64,000 nucleotides of DNA, taken from the NCBI GenBank assembly GCA_029879735.1, contig JAOUPS010000001.1, positions 18,831-82,830 of the forward strand. The letters run 5' to 3'. The notes under the pieces were generated by a model. It saw only the letters and a list, made by a program, of their open reading frames with translations. It searched no databases and was not told the DNA's origin. Made by a program: the position numbers and the translations under genes. Source of the stretch: Candidatus Bathyarchaeota archaeon. GTDB lineage: Archaea; Thermoproteota; Bathyarchaeia; Bathyarchaeales; Bathycorpusculaceae. Position 1 is the first letter of the stretch. Every line of letters starts with the position of its first letter. Positions 8,719 to 54,236 of this stretch are shown one piece after another.

Positions 8719-9942
8719 CGCGCGCTAGCCTGTTTAGAAATTGTTGTTGATTTTGTGGTTGCTGTCTTTTCTTGGGTTTCTCTGCTTGTTTTTTCTGTGT
8801 TTGATTGCTGTTTCTATCTGGAATACATTGTTCCGAGCTGGCTTCTACCTTTTCCTAGGCGTTTCTTTGATGGCTAACCCTGTATTAACCCGTCTTTGAT
8901 GGGTCTTGTTTTGCCTCATTGGGTGGTGTAGTGTTTGATGCTGCGGATGAGGCTTGGCTTATGCTGTCGGACAGCTGTTAAAGCCACGACCAGCATGGCT
9001 GAGAAGCTCAGACAAGCATGGATAAAAGCCTGTTTTAAGCCTCTAACTCTCAAGTGGTCTAGGAGAAGCCATTCTTTGGCTCTGCTGAACACCCTTTCTA
9101 TGCATACTCGCTTCCGGAAGAGGTTGGCCAGACGCTTAACTCCGTGAACCACGAAGTCACGTCCAACTTTCAGGGCGTTCTTGATCCTTGAACTTTTCCT
9201 GTAAGGTATTACCGCTTCAGCACAATACTGCTTAACCGTTTCCCTAACCTTTGCCGAGTCGTATTGAGCGTCAGCCAGAACAGTTTTGAAGCTTATGCCT
9301 CGACACTTCAGCTTCTGCAGCAACGGCTTAAAGCACAGCTTCTCGTTCACGTTACAGGGCTCAACAGTGAATGCTAGTGGCAGTTCAGAGCTTGTGCAGC
9401 ATGCCGTGTGCACCTTATAGCCGAGTATGAATCCTCTTCTTCCCCTTCCAACGCGAGCGTCGTGGTCGCTTTTCCCTGATCTGTTGTCTAGGCTTCTCTG
9501 GCTGTAAGCTTTGATGGCTGTGCTATCCAAAGCAACCACTTCACTTTTTACCGCTCCGTCCTTCAACAGCTGTTTCAATAGTATAGAGAACACCTTCTCG
9601 TACCCATCCCTGCCAAGCCTATGCCTAAACTGGGTGAACAAGCCGTGACTAGGCGTCTCCCGTCTGAATCCACATGCTCTAGCAATCCGCCTGTTCCTCT
9701 TCAGCAGCAACGCAAGCCGCCGATCGCTTGGAACACGCCACAGCTGTTTCAGCAACTGAGCCTTCAACATAGAAACAGGAGGATAAGGCTTCCTGCCAGG
9801 CCCGTCTCCATGATAAAGAGACATCAAAAACCTGCGAATAGAACCTAAATTCAGTGAACCAAGCACTTGCTTAATGTTCAAAGCTTCTTCCTAACATAAG
9901 CTTACCTAAACAACAAATTAATTTCTAAACAGCCTAGCGCGC
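8719..9942 (-). mobile_element. IS5-family insertion sequence, copy 1
   Basis: A single DDE transposase ORF with terminal inverted repeats: cctgtttagaaatt at 8729-8742 and aatttctaaacagc at 9920-9933. The ends are flanked by cgcgcgCTAG (8719-8728) and CTAGcgcgc (9934-9942). CTAG is read as a 4-bp target duplication; alternatively the inverted repeat extends to 23 bp and includes GCGCGCTAG. Confidence 0.85.
8916..9881 (-). CDS. IS5-family DDE transposase
   Basis: InsH-type N-terminus (GRKPYPPVSMLKAQLLKQLWRVPSDRRL). DDE candidates are ALDSTAIKAY, LADAQYDS and CIERVFSRAKEW. Confidence 0.9.
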   Translation of the reverse strand: MNIKQVLGSLNLGSIRRFLMSLYHGDGPGRKPYPPVSMLKAQLLKQLWRVPSDRRLALLLKRNRRIARACGFRRETPSHGLFTQFRHRLGRDGYEKVFSILLKQLLKDGAVKSEVVALDSTAIKAYSQRSLDNRSGKSDHDARVGRGRRGFILGYKVHTACCTSSELPLAFTVEPCNVNEKLCFKPLLQKLKCRGISFKTVLADAQYDSAKVRETVKQYCAEAVIPYRKSSRIKNALKVGRDFVVHGVKRLANLFRKRVCIERVFSRAKEWLLLDHLRVRGLKQAFIHACLSFSAMLVVALTAVRQHKPSLIRSIKHYTTQ

Positions 9943-39542: not shown

Positions 39543-39869
39543 TTACTTAAAATTTTTGTCAAAGAATTTTTTTTCAAGATTCTCAACATGGTCTTTTTCG
39601 TCTTCCCTGCGAAAAGCAAGTTCAATATCATTCAAAACATACGCATTAACCGCTCCGCCTATTCCAAGCATACCTTCACTAAGCTTTTCCAGTTTGGTAA
39701 AATCTATTCCCAATCTAACAGCATCTTTATCACAAATAGTTGTTCTCGAAGCCCCAGTATCAACCAAAAACTCAACTGTTTCATGTATACCTAACGGCTT
39801 AGAACCTAAAACAGCAACTACATAGGCTGCCTCAAGGGGACCAGGCTTAAAGAAGCATGGAATCCTCAA
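39543..39869 (-). CDS. retropepsin-like clan AA aspartic protease (AF_0612-like)
   Basis: FLVDTGASRTTI catalytic DTG motif and a GIGG flap-like motif, in 108 aa. Confidence 0.7.
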   Translation of the reverse strand: MRIPCFFKPGPLEAAYVVAVLGSKPLGIHETVEFLVDTGASRTTICDKDAVRLGIDFTKLEKLSEGMLGIGGAVNAYVLNDIELAFRREDEKDHVENLEKKFFDKNFK

Positions 39870-39885
39870 AAACTTCCCCTCTTAT

Positions 39886-40167
39886 CTAAAGAATTAGCTC
39901 TATCTCCTTAACTGTGACATAATCTACAGCGATCTCGTTGTAGACTTCAGAATACTTTCGTCTCAGTCTTTCAACAAGCCTAACCAATTCACGGTCATGA
40001 TCGATCACAGCTTTGCTTAAAACGGCAACCCACTCATCCTTGAACCTATTCTTCAACTCACCATAATGCTTGCTAATCCACCGCACGTTACCTTCATACC
40101 TAGAAAGCACAGCAACAACAGACTCCATTTTTTGAACCACCAAGCTCAAACATAACATACACAACAA
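39886..40167 (-). CDS. small DUF5678-like protein paired with the aspartic protease
   Basis: WISKHYGELKNRFKDEWVAVLSKAVIDHDRELVRLVERL pattern. The probable start is at MESVV (about nt 40128). It lies 17 nt upstream of the protease gene. Confidence 0.5.
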   Translation of the reverse strand: MLCMLCLSLVVQKMESVVAVLSRYEGNVRWISKHYGELKNRFKDEWVAVLSKAVIDHDRELVRLVERLRRKYSEVYNEIAVDYVTVKEIELIL

Positions 40168-40418
40168 ACCTTAAATCACTTTCGAAAAACTCGATTTCAG
40201 CAGAAAATTTCGAGCTCCCACCTGAAGGCTCCCACCTAAAACTAGCTAAAAAAGCTGAACTACTATTGAAACAAAAAACTGTTTTAATTACAATTAAACT
40301 ACCTATCGCGTGTGAAATAACAGATAGTTTGAAAAGCATGCTTCTTGTCCGTTTTCAACAGGGGTAGTTCGCATTTGTGGGAAAGATTTAATTATCCCAT
40401 TTTAGTTTTTATCCTATA

Positions 40419-40685
40419 GTGGTTGTAATGGGAGCTATCGTGAAGATTGATGAACGAGGAAGACTAGTCGTTCCATCCGAATTCAGAAACAAAGTGGAAA
40501 CCGACTACTTTGAGCTACACGAGGAGAATGGGCGGCTGGTGTTAACTCCTGTTCCAGACCCGTTAAAAACCTTGATTGGAAGGGTATCGAGAGTGAAACC
40601 TTTCAGGGATCTTGATGAAGCCGCTGAGGAAGAGGCTGAACGCACAGTAAGGGAGGAAAAGAAACACGCCAATTCTGGAGGCTGA
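40419..40685 (+). CDS. vapB: AbrB/SpoVT-family antitoxin (VapB-like)
   Basis: VKIDERGRLVVPSEFRNKV swapped-hairpin motif and an acidic C-terminal tail. Confidence 0.8.
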   Translation: MVVMGAIVKIDERGRLVVPSEFRNKVETDYFELHEENGRLVLTPVPDPLKTLIGRVSRVKPFRDLDEAAEEEAERTVREEKKHANSGG

Positions 40686-41109
40686 CCTTCTCTACGCTTC
40701 TCTAGATCCAAAAGATGATCATCATCAAGTCGCAAGGAAACTCCTAAGTCTAGCAAAGCGAAAACGGTTAGCAGACGTCAAGATTGACTCCCTTGCATTG
40801 CATGAGCTAGAGCTAAACTTGAAGACCGGTAACATCCTTATTGAGAAAAGAAAGGCCACCCTAGAAGACATAGCCAAATTCTTCACCGATTTAAGCCAGC
40901 TGCTATCTCTATACAAACTAAGCGTCTATCCACTAACGTGTCAACAAATAGCCAAAGCCGCCAACCTAAGGAAAAAGCACAACCTGACCTTCTACGATTC
41001 TCACCACGCAGCATCAGCAATGCTGTACGACTCAAAAATCATATCCACAGACAACACATACGACTCTGTCATAGGCCTAAAAAGATTAAACCCCTACTCT
41101 ATAAAGTAA
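40672..41109 (+). CDS. vapC: PIN-domain toxin (VapC-like), start codon unresolved
   Basis: PIN acidic residues lie in ADLLYASL, HELE, FYDSHHAASA and ISTDNTYD. The track ORF starts at TTG 40798. The frame and the homology run open back to 40651 with no ATG/GTG/TTG, overlapping the vapB stop. Confidence 0.6.
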   Translation: MLEADLLYASLDPKDDHHQVARKLLSLAKRKRLADVKIDSLALHELELNLKTGNILIEKRKATLEDIAKFFTDLSQLLSLYKLSVYPLTCQQIAKAANLRKKHNLTFYDSHHAASAMLYDSKIISTDNTYDSVIGLKRLNPYSIK

Positions 41110-42329: not shown

Positions 42330-42343
42330 TAGCGCGCGCGCTA
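42330..42343. repeat. TAGCGCGCGCGCTA perfect 14-bp palindrome
   Basis: Directly abuts the TATA-like cttatata (42324-42331), 20 nt upstream of the TIGR00266-family gene start. Confidence 0.9.
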
Positions 42344-44812: not shown

Positions 44813-46029
44813 GCGCGCTAGCCTGTTTAGAAATTAGTTTCTGGGTCTTGTGGTTGGTGTCTTTTTGTTTTCTCTGCTCGTTTTTCTTGGTTGAAGAGAT
44901 ATTTCTATCTGAAAACTAGAGTTCTGAACCATCTATTGCCTTTTTCCCGGTTTCTCGTTGATGATTAACCCTGTCTTATGCTTGTTTGACGTCTCTTCTT
45001 TCGCCTCATTGGGTTGTGTAGTGTTTTATGCTTCGGATGAGGCTGGGTTGACGTTGTCTAACAGCTGTTAAAGCCACGATTAGCATGGCTGAGAAGCTTA
45101 AGCAAGCGTGTATGAAAGCTTGTTCCAGTCCTCTGACTCTCAAGTGGTTTAGGAGTAGCCATTCTTTGGCTCTACTGAACACTCTTTCTATGCATACTCG
45201 TTTTCTGAAGAGCCTCACCAAACGCTTGACTCCGTGGACAATGAAATCACGTCCAACCTTCAGGGCGTTCTTAATCCTTGAACTCTTCCTGTAATGTATC
45301 ACCGCTTCAGCACCACACTCTCTCACGGTCTTCCTAACATTTGCCGAGTTGTATTGAGCGTCAGCCAAAACAGTCTTGAAGCTTACGCCTTGAGCCTTTA
45401 GCTTCTCCAACAACGGTTTAATGAAACATTTATCGTTCCGGTTGCACGGCTCAACCATGAATGTCATTGGCAGTTCACAGCTTGTGCAACATGCTGTATG
45501 CACTTTATAGCCAAGCATGAAACCTCTCCCACCTCGTCCAACTCTGGCTTCACAGTCACTTATCCCAGATTTGTTGTCAAGGCTTCTCTGACTATAAGCT
45601 TTGATGGCTGTACTGTCCACCACCACCTCACCTTTAACTACATTACTGTTCACAAGCTGCTTCAACAAAACATTGAAGACTCTCTGATACCCTTCCTTTC
45701 CTAATCGATGTCTGAACTGAGTGAACAAACCATGACTAGGTGTCTTCCTTTTAAACCCACATGCCCTAGCCATCCGCTTATTCCTCTCCAACAACAACGC
45801 AAGCCGTCGATCACTTGGAACCCGCAGCAGATGCTTCAACAATTGAGCCCTCAACATGCAAACAGGAGGATAAGGCTTACGTCCGCGCCCAACCTTATGA
45901 TAAAGAGACATCAAGAAACCGCGAATAGAACCCAAATCCAGTGAACCAAGCACCTGTTTAATACTCCAAGCTTCTTCCTAACAATAAATGGCTAAACCAA
46001 CAAATTAATTTCTAAACAGCCTAGCGCGC
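44813..46029 (-). mobile_element. IS5-family insertion sequence, copy 2 (diverged from copy 1)
   Basis: It has the same terminal repeats as copy 1: cctgtttagaaatt at 44822-44835 and aatttctaaacagc at 46007-46020. The ends are flanked by gcgcgCTAG (44813-44821) and CTAGcgcgc (46021-46029). Confidence 0.85.
45006..45953 (-). CDS. IS5-family DDE transposase
   Basis: 315 aa, roughly four-fifths identical by eye to ORF 8916..9881, with the same DDE boxes. Confidence 0.9.
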   Translation of the reverse strand: MLGSLDLGSIRGFLMSLYHKVGRGRKPYPPVCMLRAQLLKHLLRVPSDRRLALLLERNKRMARACGFKRKTPSHGLFTQFRHRLGKEGYQRVFNVLLKQLVNSNVVKGEVVVDSTAIKAYSQRSLDNKSGISDCEARVGRGGRGFMLGYKVHTACCTSCELPMTFMVEPCNRNDKCFIKPLLEKLKAQGVSFKTVLADAQYNSANVRKTVRECGAEAVIHYRKSSRIKNALKVGRDFIVHGVKRLVRLFRKRVCIERVFSRAKEWLLLNHLRVRGLEQAFIHACLSFSAMLIVALTAVRQRQPSLIRSIKHYTTQ

Positions 46030-50603: not shown

Positions 50604-51278
50604 ATGCGGCTTGTGTTGCGAATAGGCGGCTCTGTTATAGCTTCACCGGTTAATCCAGCCTTAATCAATAGGTACGCAGACTTATTGAAGGATTTGAAGG
50701 AGCAGGGACACGAAGTGGCTGTTGTTGTCGGAGGTGGCGCCCTAGCAAGAGAGTTCATCAGTGTTTCAAAGGATTTAGGACTTGACGAAAGAGCTCAGGA
50801 TGAAGTTGCAATTTCTGTTTCAAGGATTTTCGCTCAGCTTTTTCTCCAGAAACTCGGAGAGCTAGGCTGCAGGGCTGTTCCATTAAGGATTGAGGATGCT
50901 GTAAAATGTCTACGTGAAGGAAAAATCACAGTTATGGGCGGCTTAAAACCCGGCATGACCACAGACACGGTCGCGGCGTTGATTGTTGAACAAGTAAATG
51001 CTGAATTGCTCATAAAAGCCACAGATCAAGAAGGCATCTACGACAAAGACCCTAGAAAACACGTTGACGCCGTTAAACTTGAACATCTAAGTTTTGACGA
51101 TCTATCCCGTGTGTTCGCTGAAGACAAGCACAAGGCTGGAATACATCAGATCCTTGATCCGGAAGCAGTTAAGATTCTTAAAGAAGAACGGGTTAGAATC
51201 ATCGTTGTTAACGGGTTTAAGCCTGAGAATGTTTTGGCTGTTGCTAAGGGAGAAAAAGTTGGGACGTTAATCATGTAG
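50604..51278 (+). CDS. pyrH: UMP kinase, archaeal type
   Basis: VLRIGGSVIASP, VVVGGGALAREF and GMTTDTVAALIVE motifs. Confidence 0.9.
   Translation: MRLVLRIGGSVIASPVNPALINRYADLLKDLKEQGHEVAVVVGGGALAREFISVSKDLGLDERAQDEVAISVSRIFAQLFLQKLGELGCRAVPLRIEDAVKCLREGKITVMGGLKPGMTTDTVAALIVEQVNAELLIKATDQEGIYDKDPRKHVDAVKLEHLSFDDLSRVFAEDKHKAGIHQILDPEAVKILKEERVRIIVVNGFKPENVLAVAKGEKVGTLIM
51263..51277. repeat. direct repeat copy 1 (GACGTTAATCATGTA), last codons of pyrH
   Basis: Exact 15-mer repeated at 53583-53597. The similarity extends to about 24 nt with 3 mismatches. Confidence 0.85.
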
Positions 51279-51288
51279 CGTGTGCTGT

Positions 51289-51298
51289 GCGCGCGCTA
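51289..51298. repeat. (GC)4-TA motif locus
   Basis: gtGCGCGCGCTAac, 11 nt after the pyrH stop. Confidence 0.9.
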
Positions 51299-51307
51299 AC
51301 TTTTGCA

Positions 51308-51406
51308 TTGAAGCCGGAGGAGAAGGCAGATCTTGAAGCTATCGTTAGAAGGCTGGAACCAAAAATCGAGCCAGCAGTTGGGAAGGTTAAGGAGAGAAAA
51401 AATTGA
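51308..51406 (+). CDS. mini-ORF (32 aa), possible gene fragment
   Basis: TTG-KPEEKADLEAIVRRLEPKIEPAVGKVKERKN. It begins 10 nt after the GCGCGCGCTA tract and overlaps the next mini-ORF by 4 nt. Confidence 0.2.
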   Translation: MKPEEKADLEAIVRRLEPKIEPAVGKVKERKN

Positions 51407-51543
51407 GCAAGAAAGAGAAGATCGAGTTTGAAGAAGTTACACTTAAAATTCCTAAGCTCGTCATGGATTTTCTACGCAAACACGAGAAACGCCTGGAAGA
51501 AGGAACCGCGCGCGCGTGGCCGAGTAAGTTTAAACGTGTTTAA
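51403..51543 (+). CDS. mini-ORF (46 aa), possible 5-prime fragment of a larger gene
   Basis: TTG-SKKEKIEFEEVTLKIPKLVMDFLRKHEKRLEEGT, then the coding-like sequence runs into the (CG)5 tract at 51507-51516. Confidence 0.2.
   Translation: MSKKEKIEFEEVTLKIPKLVMDFLRKHEKRLEEGTARAWPSKFKRV
51507..51516. repeat. (CG)5 motif locus
   Basis: aacCGCGCGCGCGtgg, interrupting a coding-like mini-ORF. Confidence 0.9.
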
Positions 51544-51615
51544 ACAACGTGGTTTTTCTACCATGTAGCGCGGGCACATAGGTATGAAATAATTCCTTTT
51601 TTTATGTATCCATAT

Positions 51616-52080
51616 TTACCCAAAACTTATTGTGAAAGTTTGTTTTGGTCCATCAAATAACACAGAACAATGTTTTAGAGCGTCCATTCCTAAGAGTTCC
51701 CTTTTCCTGTTCCCGCACATAACCAATATTGCAGTTTTCCCTGGAGGTGGAAAGGTATATGTATCAATCTTATGTATGTATGCGGCACAGACATAAGCAG
51801 GGATTTTGCTGCCATCAGCCAGAGTTATGTTTGTAATACTGGGTTCAACGCCTATGGTTTGTGCATCTGATCTGTACCAATGCGGAACCAAAATCCCGCC
51901 ATCAAAGCCGGTGTCAATCCTACATTCAAAGTCCAAAGGAGTTCGGCGCATATTTTGTGGGTTTTGAATAGCACCTACTATTCTTACATTTGCTGATTTA
52001 TTCTTGTACCTTTTATTTATCGTAATTGTTCTTTCTGTCAAGTTCTCCAACCTGAAAAAGATTCTGAACCAGCTTCCCAA
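51616..52080 (-). CDS. retropepsin-like clan AA aspartic protease (AF_0612-like), second copy of the family
   Basis: CRIDTGFDGGILVP catalytic DTG motif in 154 aa. The TTG start overlaps the upstream ORF by 43 nt. Confidence 0.65.
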   Translation of the reverse strand: MGSWFRIFFRLENLTERTITINKRYKNKSANVRIVGAIQNPQNMRRTPLDFECRIDTGFDGGILVPHWYRSDAQTIGVEPSITNITLADGSKIPAYVCAAYIHKIDTYTFPPPGKTAILVMCGNRKRELLGMDALKHCSVLFDGPKQTFTISFG

Positions 52081-52562
52081 ACAATAACAGGCATATCAAA
52101 TCTTTTTCCTTGGATTCTTAGCAACAGATCAATTTCGGTATCCGCAGAGTCAACAATACGCCCATCAAACTTCATAGCAATGAATGCCCTTGGCTTTACC
52201 TGATAAAAATCAATAGATATCTTTGCTATCTGTTCGATCAGTTCAACCATCTCTTCTCTTTTCAGTTGCGTTCTCCTCATACTAGCAAGTTTCTGAAGCA
52301 ATCTTGGTGGTAACCATGGTTTAGGTGGCCTATTGAAACCAAGACGTATTCTTTGTTCAAATGAAAATGGAATGTCTTCCCTAGTGGGTTCAGTTTTTGA
52401 AATGTCCTCTTTACTAAGGTCAAATTTTGGTTTAGGTATCGTTCCAGATTGTGATCCAGGAGTTGAAGAGGGGTAAGATATAGTTTCTTCTTCCTCTTTG
52501 AATATCGTTTGTTGATAACTTTCAGATACTTCGGGAATAACTGTAAGTGCCACAAGGTTCAC
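52038..52562 (-). CDS. hypothetical protein with a low-complexity N-terminus and a DUF5678-like C-terminal segment
   Basis: The C-terminus AFIAMKFDGRIVDSADTEIDLLLRIQGK..PVIVWEAG resembles at pattern level the partner of the other aspartic protease (39886..40167). Its start overlaps the stop of the upstream ORF by 4 nt. Confidence 0.5.
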   Translation of the reverse strand: MNLVALTVIPEVSESYQQTIFKEEEETISYPSSTPGSQSGTIPKPKFDLSKEDISKTEPTREDIPFSFEQRIRLGFNRPPKPWLPPRLLQKLASMRRTQLKREEMVELIEQIAKISIDFYQVKPRAFIAMKFDGRIVDSADTEIDLLLRIQGKRFDMPVIVWEAGSESFSGWRT

Positions 52563-53206
52563 CTATCAATAAGACCAATAACCTTTGCCATCCTTTCCTC
52601 GAAAGATTCTACAAATTTCCTTGTTTTAACTCTATCGCTGTTTCTGAAAACAACACTTATAACATACGAATCATTCCTCTCAAAGTTCGGTCTGACCGTT
52701 ATATCAAACCAATTTTCTGAATTTACTCTTAAATCAGCGCCGCCAAATCTAAGTCCAAAAGGCCAAATTTTCTCGTCCATTATCTTTTCAAGGTCATCGA
52801 AGATTGAAAATCTAAGGGCTTTTGCAATCGTTTTGTAAGCTTGCTTTTTTGTTGGAAATTCATATGTCGCAACAAAACTATAAAATCGTGCAATGTCATT
52901 AACATCAACATCATGATCTTCTTTTAAGATATTAGCAATTTCATCGAAACAGGTTAGGGCAGATTTGATAGAAATATCTACGATTGTCAAAAACTGTGCG
53001 CTCGTATCAACCTGTATGACGGTTTTTCCTTTGCGAGCTATTTCGCCTGTACCCGTCATCCTTCCCGGGGGGCGTGGAAATGGAAGCGCAGGGCTGATTT
53101 CGTAACCTTTTTTTTCTAAACTCTCAACTATTTCTTCAAAAGTCAGCGGATACAGAATCGTATTGAAGCCTATGCCATAAGTGACTGACAGAGGTTTATA
53201 TCTCAT
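52559..53206 (-). CDS. hypothetical protein (215 aa), first gene of the three-gene operon
   Basis: A strong SD-like agaggggg sequence lies 5 nt upstream of the ATG, with A/T-rich TATA-like boxes further upstream. No recognisable family motif. Confidence 0.55.
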   Translation of the reverse strand: MRYKPLSVTYGIGFNTILYPLTFEEIVESLEKKGYEISPALPFPRPPGRMTGTGEIARKGKTVIQVDTSAQFLTIVDISIKSALTCFDEIANILKEDHDVDVNDIARFYSFVATYEFPTKKQAYKTIAKALRFSIFDDLEKIMDEKIWPFGLRFGGADLRVNSENWFDITVRPNFERNDSYVISVVFRNSDRVKTRKFVESFEERMAKVIGLIDR

Positions 53207-53244
53207 TTTTCCCCCTCTTCATTTATATATACTCTTTCGATTGC

Positions 53245-53257
53245 TTATATTTTAATA
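53245..53257 (-). promoter_or_regulatory. candidate TATA box for the 53206..51616 operon
   Basis: The minus strand reads ttaaaatataagc about 40-50 nt upstream of the ATG at 53206. Confidence 0.3.
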
Positions 53258-53310
53258 TGGCGTGTGGTAAGTACCGACCACCACCGCTAAATTGTTCTTT
53301 GAGGGCCTTC

Positions 53311-53319
53311 CGCGCGCGC
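53311..53319. repeat. (CG)4C motif locus
   Basis: ttcCGCGCGCGCtcta, upstream of the three-gene operon. Confidence 0.9.
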
Positions 53320-53582
53320 TCTATCGATGGCGTCATCTAATCTTACAATTCCCCTTCTTTTTTCTGTTTTCTTGTAATATCAAGCCACATAGAACTATCT
53401 TCTATAATAGAAATCCATATTTTATGGTTAAATCTGGTGATTTATGATATTGTAACGTATTACCGGACTGTCGCGCACGCACACAAAGGAGCCGAAGACA
53501 TCTGGATTCTTTCTATGGGGTTCATGGAAGTTTAAAAGCGAACCACGTATGGGCTATAGGTGATTAATGTCACGTAGGCATA

Positions 53583-53597
53583 GACGTTAATCATGTA
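53583..53597. repeat. direct repeat copy 2 (GACGTTAATCATGTA)
   Basis: Exact copy of 51263-51277, located just upstream of the PadR promoter. Confidence 0.85.
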
Positions 53598-53629
53598 ATG
53601 TGTTCTCGTTCAACACTTTCGAGGCAACG

Positions 53630-53663
53630 TTTATATATCATAGTTGATATCAAATGCGATATC
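53630..53663 (+). promoter_or_regulatory. candidate PadR promoter (TATA tttatata) plus tandem GATATC operator-like repeats
   Basis: tttatata lies at 53630-53637. GATATC lies at 53646-53651 and 53658-53663, spanning the expected transcription start. The ATG is at 53676. Confidence 0.4.
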
Positions 53664-53675
53664 ACTGGTGATAAC

Positions 53676-54236
53676 ATGTTTGCTCTTCCGCCACCACCCC
53701 CATTCCGGCATTGGATGAGACATACTGCAAGTGTTCCAAAGGGATTTCTAAGATACTATGTGCTTAAACTCTTGAAAGAGAAGCCCATGTCTGGATCTGA
53801 GATCATCGTTGAAATTGAAAGGGAAACGGATGGACGATGGAAACCAAGTCCAGGCTCAATCTATCCCCTTCTGGCATGGCTTCACGACAAGGACTACATA
53901 AAAGAGCTACCGAAGGAGGAGGGCGGGATAAAACGTTACATGCTTACGGAGCAAGGTAAAAAATTCTTTGAAGAACAGGTGAAACTCAAAGAAAAACTGC
54001 AGAAAAAGTTAGAGTTCTTAGCACCTCCATTCTTCGGCGGATTCTGGCTTAGCGCTCATCCTGAGAGACTGCGTGAACTTCGAGAACCTGTTAGACGATT
54101 TGCTAGAGCAATTTTCAGTCTTAGAACAGCTTTTCAGGAGAATTTTACAGAGCAAGCCTTAAAAGAGGTTAAGGAATTGTTGAACAGCACCACTGAAAAA
54201 ATTGAGGAAATAAGTAAAAGAATTAAAAGAGGATGA
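53676..54236 (+). CDS. PadR-family transcriptional regulator
   Basis: YYVLKLLKEKPMSGSEIIVEIERETDGRWKPSPGSIYPLLAWLHDKDYI wHTH signature. The track ORF starts at 53598, but the TATA box lies inside that extension, so Met-27 (53676) is preferred. Confidence 0.8.
   Translation: MFALPPPPPFRHWMRHTASVPKGFLRYYVLKLLKEKPMSGSEIIVEIERETDGRWKPSPGSIYPLLAWLHDKDYIKELPKEEGGIKRYMLTEQGKKFFEEQVKLKEKLQKKLEFLAPPFFGGFWLSAHPERLRELREPVRRFARAIFSLRTAFQENFTEQALKEVKELLNSTTEKIEEISKRIKRG

Follow-up and report, generated by a model that had tools for sequence, protein, structure and literature searches.

A protease-bearing three-gene cassette in a precise insertion at the 3' end of pyrH in a Bathyarchaeia genome

The closest described counterparts of the locus considered in this work are the integrated mobile genetic elements (iMGEs) and cryptic integrated elements of Thermoproteota, for example the iMGEs of Thaumarchaeota, which are bounded by attachment (att) sites measuring 8-25 bp (median 17) and which in 14 of 68 cases occupy the 3'-distal region of a protein-coding gene, the gene being preserved (Krupovic et al. 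2019, PMC6563490). The locus is a 2.3-kb insert in a 64-kb stretch of DNA from a Candidatus Bathyarchaeota archaeon (contig JAOUPS010000001.1; this whole stretch is denoted here as the window, and positions are counted from its first letter). Exact matches of its proteins assign the window to a metagenome-assembled genome from estuarine sediment (JGI 3300022221). The insert lies between pyrH, which encodes the archaeal UMP kinase, and a gene for a PadR-family regulator, and it carries three genes, denoted g1, g2 and g3. The insert shares with the Thaumarchaeota elements the short direct-repeat att sites, the location of the target at the 3' terminus of a protein-coding gene and boundaries checked by means of empty sites (PMC6563490), and differs from them in its small size, in having neither an integrase nor a replication gene, and in its host, a member of the Bathyarchaeia. 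The term "Aspartyl protease", relevant to the product of g3, is absent from the text of that paper, which was not otherwise checked for this cargo.

The insert is delimited by an exact direct repeat. The 15-mer GACGTTAATCATGTA is present twice (Table 1) and has no third exact copy in the 64 kb; allowing for up to two mismatches added a single site (10841), while 0.11 matches were expected and none of 100 shuffles reached three. Beyond this core the similarity runs on imperfectly to 24 nt, with 88% identity (three mismatches), the 24-nt attB sequence being GACGTTAATCATGTAATGTGTTCT and the attP-like arm GACGTTAATCATGTAGCGTGTGCT. Both the repeat and its imperfect extension had been noted in an earlier interpretation based on the letters of the DNA and its open reading frames (ORFs), referred to here as the sequence-only reading, and both were recovered. 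The same reading equated the repeat with the last pyrH codons plus the stop codon; the left copy corresponds to the final four codons of pyrH and the TA of the stop, and the first base of the insert is the stop-codon G. The gene now ends ...ATC ATG TAG and, since this G is provided by the insert, pyrH stays intact. On the other side, the A directly following the right copy restores the ancestral TAA stop context, and the promoter region of PadR is left untouched, with its TATA box and a GATATC..GATATC palindrome intact. No tRNA gene was found anywhere in the window.

Further evidence came from the comparison with related genomes. One genome per GTDB species was scanned with pyrH, which yielded 80 Bathyarchaeia loci with pyrH identities of 62-85% (comparison loci, about 150 in all, are labelled with L and a number), and relatives of g1-g3 are encoded in none of them. 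In most, PadR, or ABC/FtsX genes where PadR is absent, is found some 80-250 bp after pyrH, a minority having unrelated inserts in the pyrH-PadR spacer or missing those downstream genes. When 2,320 bp were removed from the window and the remainder was aligned with the three closest loci (L013, L014 and L015), the mean column identity was 83%, the only indels were of 1 nt and 3 nt, and the reconstructed empty site put the TAA stop, the TATA box of PadR and the GATATC...GATATC palindrome back in register. The GC content is 0.34-0.40 within the insert versus 0.42-0.47 outside. Positions 51278-53597, comprising 2,305 bp and a single copy of the repeat, are a precise insertion of foreign DNA at the end of pyrH. 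Integration into the 3' end of this gene had been proposed in the sequence-only reading, together with an inspection of the pyrH-PadR junction in related genomes; that inspection, with 80 of 80 relatives free of the insert and the closest three aligning across the site, supports the proposal.

The part of the insert that is shared with other loci is smaller than the insert itself. Nucleotide likeness detected by blastn is limited to 51609-53259, which comprises the three genes and about 50 bp of promoter, and the 2.3-kb unit proposed earlier therefore holds as the size of the insertion but not as a conserved unit, the conserved mobile unit being a 1.65-kb cassette. The leader of this cassette is conserved at the nucleotide level in L100, L102 and L103, blastn homology reaching 53254-53259. 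The genes are translationally coupled by stop/start overlaps (GTGA between g1 and g2, TTGA between g2 and g3) with Shine-Dalgarno (SD)-like motifs, and these overlaps, together with the promoter boxes, bear out the notion of a coupled minus-strand operon with its own TATA and SD-like signals. The coordinates first given for the three ORFs also stand, except for two starts. For g2, the GTG at 52553, which comes next after the GTG that overlaps the g1 stop, is the choice of gene callers and homologues and has AGGTGA 7 nt upstream, is the most likely start, giving a protein of 171 residues; for g3, a TTG at 52041 that overlaps the g2 stop is the most likely start, giving 141 residues. Comparison with the two closest cassettes, L100 and L102, gave dN/dS ratios of 0.27-0.34 for g1, 0.39-0.40 for g2 and 0.19-0.25 for g3, values that point to purifying selection on the cassette.

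A search of metagenomes with a g1 profile produced 55 loci, and in approximately 40 independent ones (g1 identity of about 30% or more, contig long enough) the g1-g2-g3 order is kept, the trio being still recognisable at g1 identities of 23-31% (L140, L149). The co-occurrence of the three genes elsewhere, which the sequence-only reading had suggested looking for, was thereby observed. In L097/L098, a tyrosine integrase and a PrimPol/D5_N helicase precede the trio; in L100, the closest cassette (84% nucleotide identity), the order is a Rep-like gene (PF23343), a membrane protein, the trio and an integrase; and in L102 the trio adjoins a 419-residue integrase with a helix-turn-helix (HTH), the cassettes of L100 and L102 being 81-84% identical to that of the window. 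A complete element of 5.86 kb was found in L155 (7773-13628 of this locus, from the 165-kb contig CAZRVS010000005.1 of a metagenome-assembled genome), with the order Rep(PF23343)-g1-g2-g3-orf-orf-Int, an integrase of 570 residues, and a location between the genes for a low-molecular-weight (LMW) phosphatase and an amino-acid permease. It is bounded by the 11-bp sequence TCCCGGGCTAC, the only repeat of at least 10 bp common to both junction zones, and it is a candidate type specimen of the element family. The L097, L100 and L155 integrases are mutually related, and in L155, L156 and L100 the cassette directly follows the Rep gene on the same strand. In L096 and L157, the trio stands alone among host genes. 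Of the Pfam families matched by 114 non-redundant ORFs adjoining the cassette, Phage_integrase is the most frequent. The cassette is conserved and moves horizontally as a unit, and a family of integrative elements of 5-6 kb is defined by L097, L100, L102 and L155. As a separate observation, a 206-residue protein with no Pfam match, encoded between the cassette and the integrase of L100 (3806-4426, minus strand), contains the motifs HLSCHGG and FISACS, which are reminiscent of a Cys-His protease of the caspase/CHAT type.

How the insert arrived at pyrH can be explained on this basis. The account that seems to us the most probable overall, with confidence somewhat above even, is that the segment is an integrase-less derivative of these small integrative plasmid-like elements, possibly with a toxin-antitoxin (TA)-like protease module as cargo. 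A tyrosine recombinase would have joined a 15-bp core on the element to the identical last codons of pyrH, and the recombination would have duplicated the core as attL and attR while leaving pyrH and the PadR promoter intact; the type of enzyme is inferred, and the pattern fits documented integrations in Thermoproteota (PMC6563490). Two routes to the present state can be envisaged: either a Rep gene upstream of g1 and an Int gene downstream of g3 were lost by two deletions, or the segment was always a minimal unit mobilised in trans.

Several results weigh against this account. The insert contains no integrase homologue, and tblastn with four cassette-linked integrases detected none in the 64-kb window at E <= 1, so that the absence of an integrase, stated in the sequence-only reading, applies to the insert and to the whole window. 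Neither an integrase nor a Rep gene nor a remnant of either was detected in the two unique flanks of the cassette, and decay would consequently require two clean deletions. A search of the related elements and relatives for the 15-bp core, with up to two mismatches allowed, gave no match at a meaningful place, and none of the 6-8 contigs available for the same population is an excised or empty-site variant, the segment being present in all of them. Attachment repeats were also sought around the integrase-less copies L096, L157 and L093, and no convincing one was found, a 17-nt repeat at L096 lying inside moeA. As a separate matter, pyrH was considered as a recurrent att site, and no relative has the repeat of its 3' end downstream.

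The products of the cassette were then characterised individually, and the most readily classified is that of g3. It matches TIGR03698 ("clan_AA_DTGF") with an E-value of 5.7e-5 over profile positions 6-105 of 107, and the defence model PEPT_D of PADLOC with an E-value of 0.012. It has no Pfam match itself, but 11 of 29 homologues match PF13975 (best E 0.0025). The family retains a D-T-G-F-x-G-G motif, in which D56, G58, F59, G61 and G62 do not vary and at least 90% of the sequences share T57, as well as a conserved LLGMD near the C-terminus and an invariant G131. The earlier assignment of g3 as a retropepsin-like protease with DTG is supported in this way, weakly at curated thresholds and with the catalytic motif kept. 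Like the TIGR03698 and PEPT_D proteins, which have been linked to conflict loci, it is a single-domain retropepsin-like protein of about 100-140 residues with DTGF; unlike them, it scores far under the cut-off and has no cas genes nearby. An aspartyl protease is known as an accessory to type III CRISPR operons in Sulfolobales (PMC3973734), and no other related case came up in the literature searched.

The g2 protein has a disordered and acidic N-terminus (residues 1-61, AlphaFold2 pLDDT, or predicted local distance difference test, below 50), a conserved PFS..LGFN.PPKPWLPP segment, and a C-terminal domain predicted to fold as alpha-alpha-beta-beta-alpha-beta, with a pLDDT of about 90 for residues 80-165. 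Among 26 g2 homologues, seven weakly match PF18929 (DUF5678), with a best E-value of 0.013. Two further searches connect g2 to this family: phmmer started from a Pfam-annotated DUF5678 protein (L157:1683-1928) found g2-type ORFs in L144 (2e-5) and L149 (8e-3), and the hidden Markov model (HMM) built after one iteration recovered all g2 proteins. The DUF5678-like C-terminus originally described is supported by this phmmer/HMM link, again weakly at curated thresholds. The Foldseek search with g2 was uninformative, and PDB sequence searches gave nothing for g2 or g3.

The third protein, encoded by g1, has no match in Pfam, NCBIfam or PADLOC and no PDB match by sequence, and none of 30 homologues has a Pfam match. 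When 1.84 billion cluster representatives were searched with a profile, a family of 555 representatives at 50% clustering emerged (389 at E <= 1e-10), nearly all of 210-235 residues, the few named relatives being "hypothetical protein" from Bathyarchaeia. There are no relatives in 2.9 million IMG/VR viral contigs and none in PHROGs. The AlphaFold2 model (pLDDT 91.4; predicted template modelling score, pTM, 0.86) shows two lobes, each beta-alpha-beta3-alpha, and in a Foldseek search against the PDB the top 12 matches were all TBP chains or TBP-containing complexes, with probabilities of 0.98-1.00 and a best E-value of 1.3e-4. The statement that this protein belongs to no recognisable family is thus accurate by sequence, but a TBP-like fold is predicted for it. 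Among the viral structures of BFVD, the matches were mostly uncharacterised giant-virus proteins (best template modelling score, TM, 0.53-0.55), with large subunits of VETF-like early transcription factors appearing from rank 11 onwards and a single annotated TBP in 28th place.

What g1 shares with TBP is therefore a predicted two-lobed alpha/beta saddle whose best structural matches in the PDB are TBPs. A lobe of TBP contains five strands, whereas that of the g1 model has four. The structural fit to TBP has TM-scores of 0.33-0.43 and a root-mean-square deviation of 8-10 A, low values that place the likeness at the fold level only, and TM-scores overall span 0.33-0.55; PF00352, the TBP repeat, is matched by neither g1 nor the 30 homologues; and an internal-repeat search with hhalign detected no sequence-level repeat. 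A further difference from TBP is the setting of g1, whose gene shares its operon with that of a protease and is carried by mobile DNA. On the basis of the model, g1 is best described as a protein with a predicted TBP-like fold and not as a member of the TBP family. Characterised TBP-domain proteins other than TBP have a single TBP domain (Brindefalk et al. 2013, PMC3597702).

A distant g1-like subfamily (27-29% identity, 224-248 residues) was noted in L135, L136, L138, L139, L142, L143, L145, L146 and L147. In these loci g2 and g3 do not follow, and the gene is preceded by an overlapping one that encodes a protein of about 260 residues with an N-terminal HTH (weak PF12728; e.g., L136 9174-10666). 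This is a second partnership of the TBP-fold protein, apparently a chromosomal one.

Concerning the function of the cassette, it can tentatively be proposed, by analogy with simpler gene pairs, that it might be an addiction or conflict module of TA-like type, founded on the DUF5678 and retropepsin pair. In this proposal, g3 would be the effector, acting as a homodimeric aspartic protease, and g2 would bind and restrain it via the DUF5678 domain, with the disordered N-terminal extension and the proline-rich segment of g2 as a pseudo-substrate or degradable tail; g1 would be an added third component, serving as a nucleic-acid- or peptide-binding sensor, as a regulator or as a target of the protease. 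The fact that the cassette moves between Rep and PrimPol backbones and survives alone in chromosomes fits an accessory cargo of this kind. The window itself holds a canonical pair 11 kb away, in a small TA-like island (39543-41109). Its first member is a protein with DUF5678 (39886-40167, minus strand; PF18929 at threshold, with 23.3 bits), and a DTGA retropepsin-like protease comes after it (39543-39869, minus strand; PF13650, 29.8 bits); adjoining them are an AbrB/MazE-like gene (40419-40685) and a 103-residue ORF (40798-41109), the presumed PIN-type partner of the AbrB/MazE-like gene. The same type of pair occurs in L157 (1683-2292) beside two MazE-PIN modules. A small first gene, a slightly larger overlapping second one and TA-rich surroundings are typical of TA modules, and it is on this layout that g2-g3 is read as an elaborated pair. 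The profile-versus-single-sequence comparison of g2 and g3 with the canonical pair of the window was too weak to inform.

The resemblance to the stand-alone pairs lies in the order of the genes (DUF5678 first, a protease with D-T/S-G second, overlapping or nearly so) and in their being small genes on or near mobile or TA-rich DNA; the position of DUF5678 directly before a protease gene is an association observed in this analysis and does not belong to the Pfam definition of the family. In contrast to those pairs, g2 has about 90 extra N-terminal residues (the disordered part and the PPKPWLPP segment), g3 is a diverged DTGF branch under the Pfam thresholds, and the TBP-fold gene always precedes. 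With type II TA modules the cassette has in common small, translationally coupled genes that reside on plasmid-like elements and pass from one backbone to another, and its simpler relatives adjoin PIN-AbrB/MazE pairs; it differs from them in having three genes and not two and in belonging to no known toxin or antitoxin family. A number of observations count against the TA-like reading. The g2 protein of the window has no match to PF18929 at E <= 1 and is below the curated threshold, and the TIGR03698 score of g3, 23.4 bits, is under the curated cut-off of 57.35. When the known defence systems of PADLOC-DB 2.0 were considered, g1 and g2 were unmatched and g3 had only the PEPT_D match mentioned above, and among the neighbouring genes PADLOC revealed no consistent defence system. 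The suggestion that the trio might be found in defence islands or on mobile elements is accordingly upheld for the mobile elements but not for a consistent defence context.

A more specific and speculative version, which must be considered unlikely on present evidence, is that the trio represents an undescribed three-component system of archaeal mobile elements, composed of a bipartite TBP-fold protein, a retropepsin-like protease and a DUF5678 partner, for instance a protease-gated TBP mimic that would shut down or redirect the transcription of the host in the service of plasmid addiction or of abortive infection.

Other explanations differ in the role given to the cassette or in the origin of the segment. 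The one that survives best, itself unlikely, keeps the insertion and the mobile origin and considers the cassette as the element's own module for the control of expression or replication, with g1 as a TBP-like DNA-binding factor, either a decoy or an element-specific initiation factor, and with proteolysis by g3 controlling the activity of g1 or its partner, g2. This would suit the two-lobed TBP-like fold of g1, the location of the cassette directly after Rep on the same strand in L155, L156 and L100, its share of the 5.86-kb element (about 30%, which suggests a core function) and the pairing of distant g1-like proteins with an HTH protein in place of g2/g3. However, the cassette resides on unrelated backbones, with a rolling-circle replication (RCR) Rep or a PrimPol, and also alone in chromosomes (the window, L096 and L157), as is typical of accessory cargo; moreover, g1 lacks sequence similarity to TBP and is near-neutral (pI 6.6), and g2-g3 has stand-alone relatives in TA-rich islands.

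It is improbable that the 15-bp repeat is a target-site duplication left by cut-and-paste or casposase-like transposition. Casposons generate target duplications of 14-15 bp, and the window does contain two insertion sequence (IS) copies. The 3' ends of protein genes, ef-2 among them, are also known targets of casposons (PMC6563490), and the likeness to the present insert is thus a duplication of similar length at the same type of site. In contrast to casposons, the insert lacks terminal inverted repeats, Cas1 and PolB. Indeed, no terminal inverted repeats adjoin the duplications, the sole imperfect inverted match being 97 nt inside the right end, and neither Cas1 nor a transposase is encoded by the insert, which makes an origin by transposase or casposase unlikely. 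The IS of the window has other ends (GCGCGCTAGSCTG...), the 24-nt similarity of 88% extending beyond the core fits attP/attB mimicry, the insert brings a replacement stop codon and the relatives of the cassette carry tyrosine integrases.

Slightly less probable still is a morphogenetic module of a small, unrecognised Bathyarchaeia virus, in which g3 would act as the protease of maturation, g1 and g2 would have structural or scaffolding roles and the window would hold a provirus remnant. The combination of a retropepsin-type protease with a protein having a long disordered N-terminus, the association of the cassette, in elements of 5-6 kb, with an integrase and a Rep of the inovirus/plectrovirus type (PF23343), and the presence of an HK97-gp10-like gene near the L096 cassette and of two neighbours matching terminase might suggest so; against this, the viral contigs and PHROGs gave no match, no capsid-like fold was found (the g1 fold being TBP-like), the elements possess no other morphogenesis gene, and the stand-alone DUF5678 and protease pairs are chromosomal and TA-associated. 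Finally, the possibility that the segment is ancestral, lost in the relatives and bounded by a coincidental repeat, for which it can be said that every sampled contig of the population has the segment, is effectively refuted by the relatives survey, in which most loci keep pyrH-PadR or pyrH-ABC synteny and none of the 80 has the segment, and by the excision-precise alignment, as well as by the improbability of the exact 15-mer and the finding of the cassette at unrelated sites and in integrase-bearing elements.

Table 1. Coordinates of the insert, its genes and the adjoining host genes in the window.
Feature	Position	Strand	Basis or remark
pyrH, archaeal UMP kinase, 224 aa, integration target	50604..51278	+	TIGR02076 pyrH_arch, 214.8 bits
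Left repeat copy, attL core	51263..51277	.	exact 15-bp match
Left unique flank	51278..51608	.	(CG)4-5 tracts at 51289 and 51507, mini-ORFs, T7 run 51594-51600
g3, DTGF retropepsin-like (clan AA) protease, 141 aa (most likely start; longest ORF to 52080)	51616..52041	-	TIGR03698
g2, 171 aa (most likely start; alternative GTG at 52562 gives 174 aa)	52038..52553	-	alignment; AlphaFold2
g1, 215 aa, no Pfam or NCBIfam family	52559..53206	-	ORF; predicted TBP-like saddle
Cassette promoter/leader	53207..53260	-	TATA-like boxes TTAAAATATAAG and GTATATATAAAT; GAGGGGG precedes the g1 ATG by 6 nt
Right unique flank	53261..53582	.	(CG)4 tract at 53311
Right repeat copy, attR core	53583..53597	.	exact match; native pyrH-PadR spacer beyond
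PadR-family regulator, 186 aa as called, ancestral pyrH neighbour	53676..54236	+	PF03551, 55.1 bits; synteny

The two flanks that separate the cassette from the repeats, of 330 bp on the left and 320 bp on the right, are unique: when 51279-51620 and 53200-53600 were compared by blastn and tblastx with the comparison loci and the rest of the window, only the promoter-proximal 50 bp matched. The mini-ORFs of the left flank (51308-51406 and 51403-51543) are rich in K and E and resemble a frameshifted fragment. An Rfam scan of the insert identified no family, with one sub-threshold snoRNA match (E 0.62), and the folding of the left flank as RNA is nothing unusual (z = -0.28). The repeat end occurs a third time, as the partial copy CATGTAGCG at 51562 (51272-51285 and 51562-51575 reading CATGTAGCGCGGGC and CATGTAGCGTGTGC, respectively), and this copy and a 13-nt inverted repeat (51286-98 and 51566-78) bracket the region of the mini-ORFs; both may be due to chance in GC-alternating sequence. 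A nested insertion of about 290 bp at 51279-51570 was considered and set aside, as it has no terminal features. Of the five (CG)n loci first counted in the segment, three are proper tracts of at least three units (51289-96, 51507-16 and 53311-18) and the other two are short and imperfect, so the count was generous; all lie outside the gene cassette.

Such tracts are a property of the window as a whole, in which they are about 50-fold over-represented (8 occurrences of CGCGCGCG versus 0.17 expected). They are found at 1895, 21979, 32716, 42332, 46141, 51289, 51507, 53311 and 62204, with 11 shorter ones, and 16 of the 20 with at least three units are intergenic, at gene boundaries, though approximately 83% of the window is coding. 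Those at 42332 and 46141 directly adjoin CTTATATA boxes on the 3' side, with 22-40 bp to the gene starts downstream. The tracts could be a promoter- or terminator-proximal signal, or a protein-binding or Z-DNA-prone motif. The two IS copies of the window (~8719-9942 and ~44813-46029) encode a DDE_Tnp_1 + DUF772 transposase of 315-321 residues and have GCGCGC-initiated terminal inverted repeats, GCGCGCTAGSCTGTTTAGAAATT; one copy is 5 kb upstream of pyrH. Mobilisation of the insert by this IS was considered and rejected, as the ends of the IS (GCGCGCTAGSCTGTTTAGAAATT) do not match those of the insert.

The pyrH-PadR spacer has features of its own. Upstream of PadR (53630-53675), a TTTATATA box and a TTGATATC-N4-GCGATATC palindrome are kept in all relatives (L013-L026), and they are probably the autoregulatory operator of PadR. 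The spacer of L034 (8676-10870) holds a gene for a secreted repeat protein of 648 residues, and those of L016, L024, L055 and L078 contain 0.3-0.7 kb of extra sequence. In L114 (436-2860), the genes that come after pyrH (63% identity) are a PIN-like one, one of 329 codons, one of 121 and then g1-g2-g3, the cassette lying 2.4 kb downstream of pyrH on a contig that stops before the right junction and for which no close empty-site relative is available. These cases suggest that the pyrH-PadR spacer may be a recurrent insertion target.

In the literature, no functional study of DUF5678 or of its archaeal retropepsin-like partners was found, nor any paper on the cassette; integration of this kind is already known, and the cassette appears to be undescribed. 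The locus provides, for Bathyarchaeia, a textbook-quality case of short-att integration into a housekeeping gene at its 3' end, with 80 empty sites for comparison, in an abundant uncultured sediment lineage whose plasmid-like elements have barely been described, and the element family represented by L097, L100, L102 and L155 could seed genetic tools for these organisms. It also draws attention to the g1 family, whose 555 clusters at 50% identity are covered by no Pfam model and carry no annotation; provided that the predicted fold reflects homology, the presence of a bipartite TBP-like protein on mobile DNA would be notable. A function, if assigned to the cassette, would explain the widespread and unstudied archaeal pairs of DUF5678 and aspartic-protease genes, and would add a data point on the reuse of the TBP fold. 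Should the three-component system outlined above prove true, g1 would be the first case, outside the TBP family itself, of a TBP-like protein that is both bipartite and functional, and the archaeal DUF5678/retropepsin pairs would gain their first assigned role.

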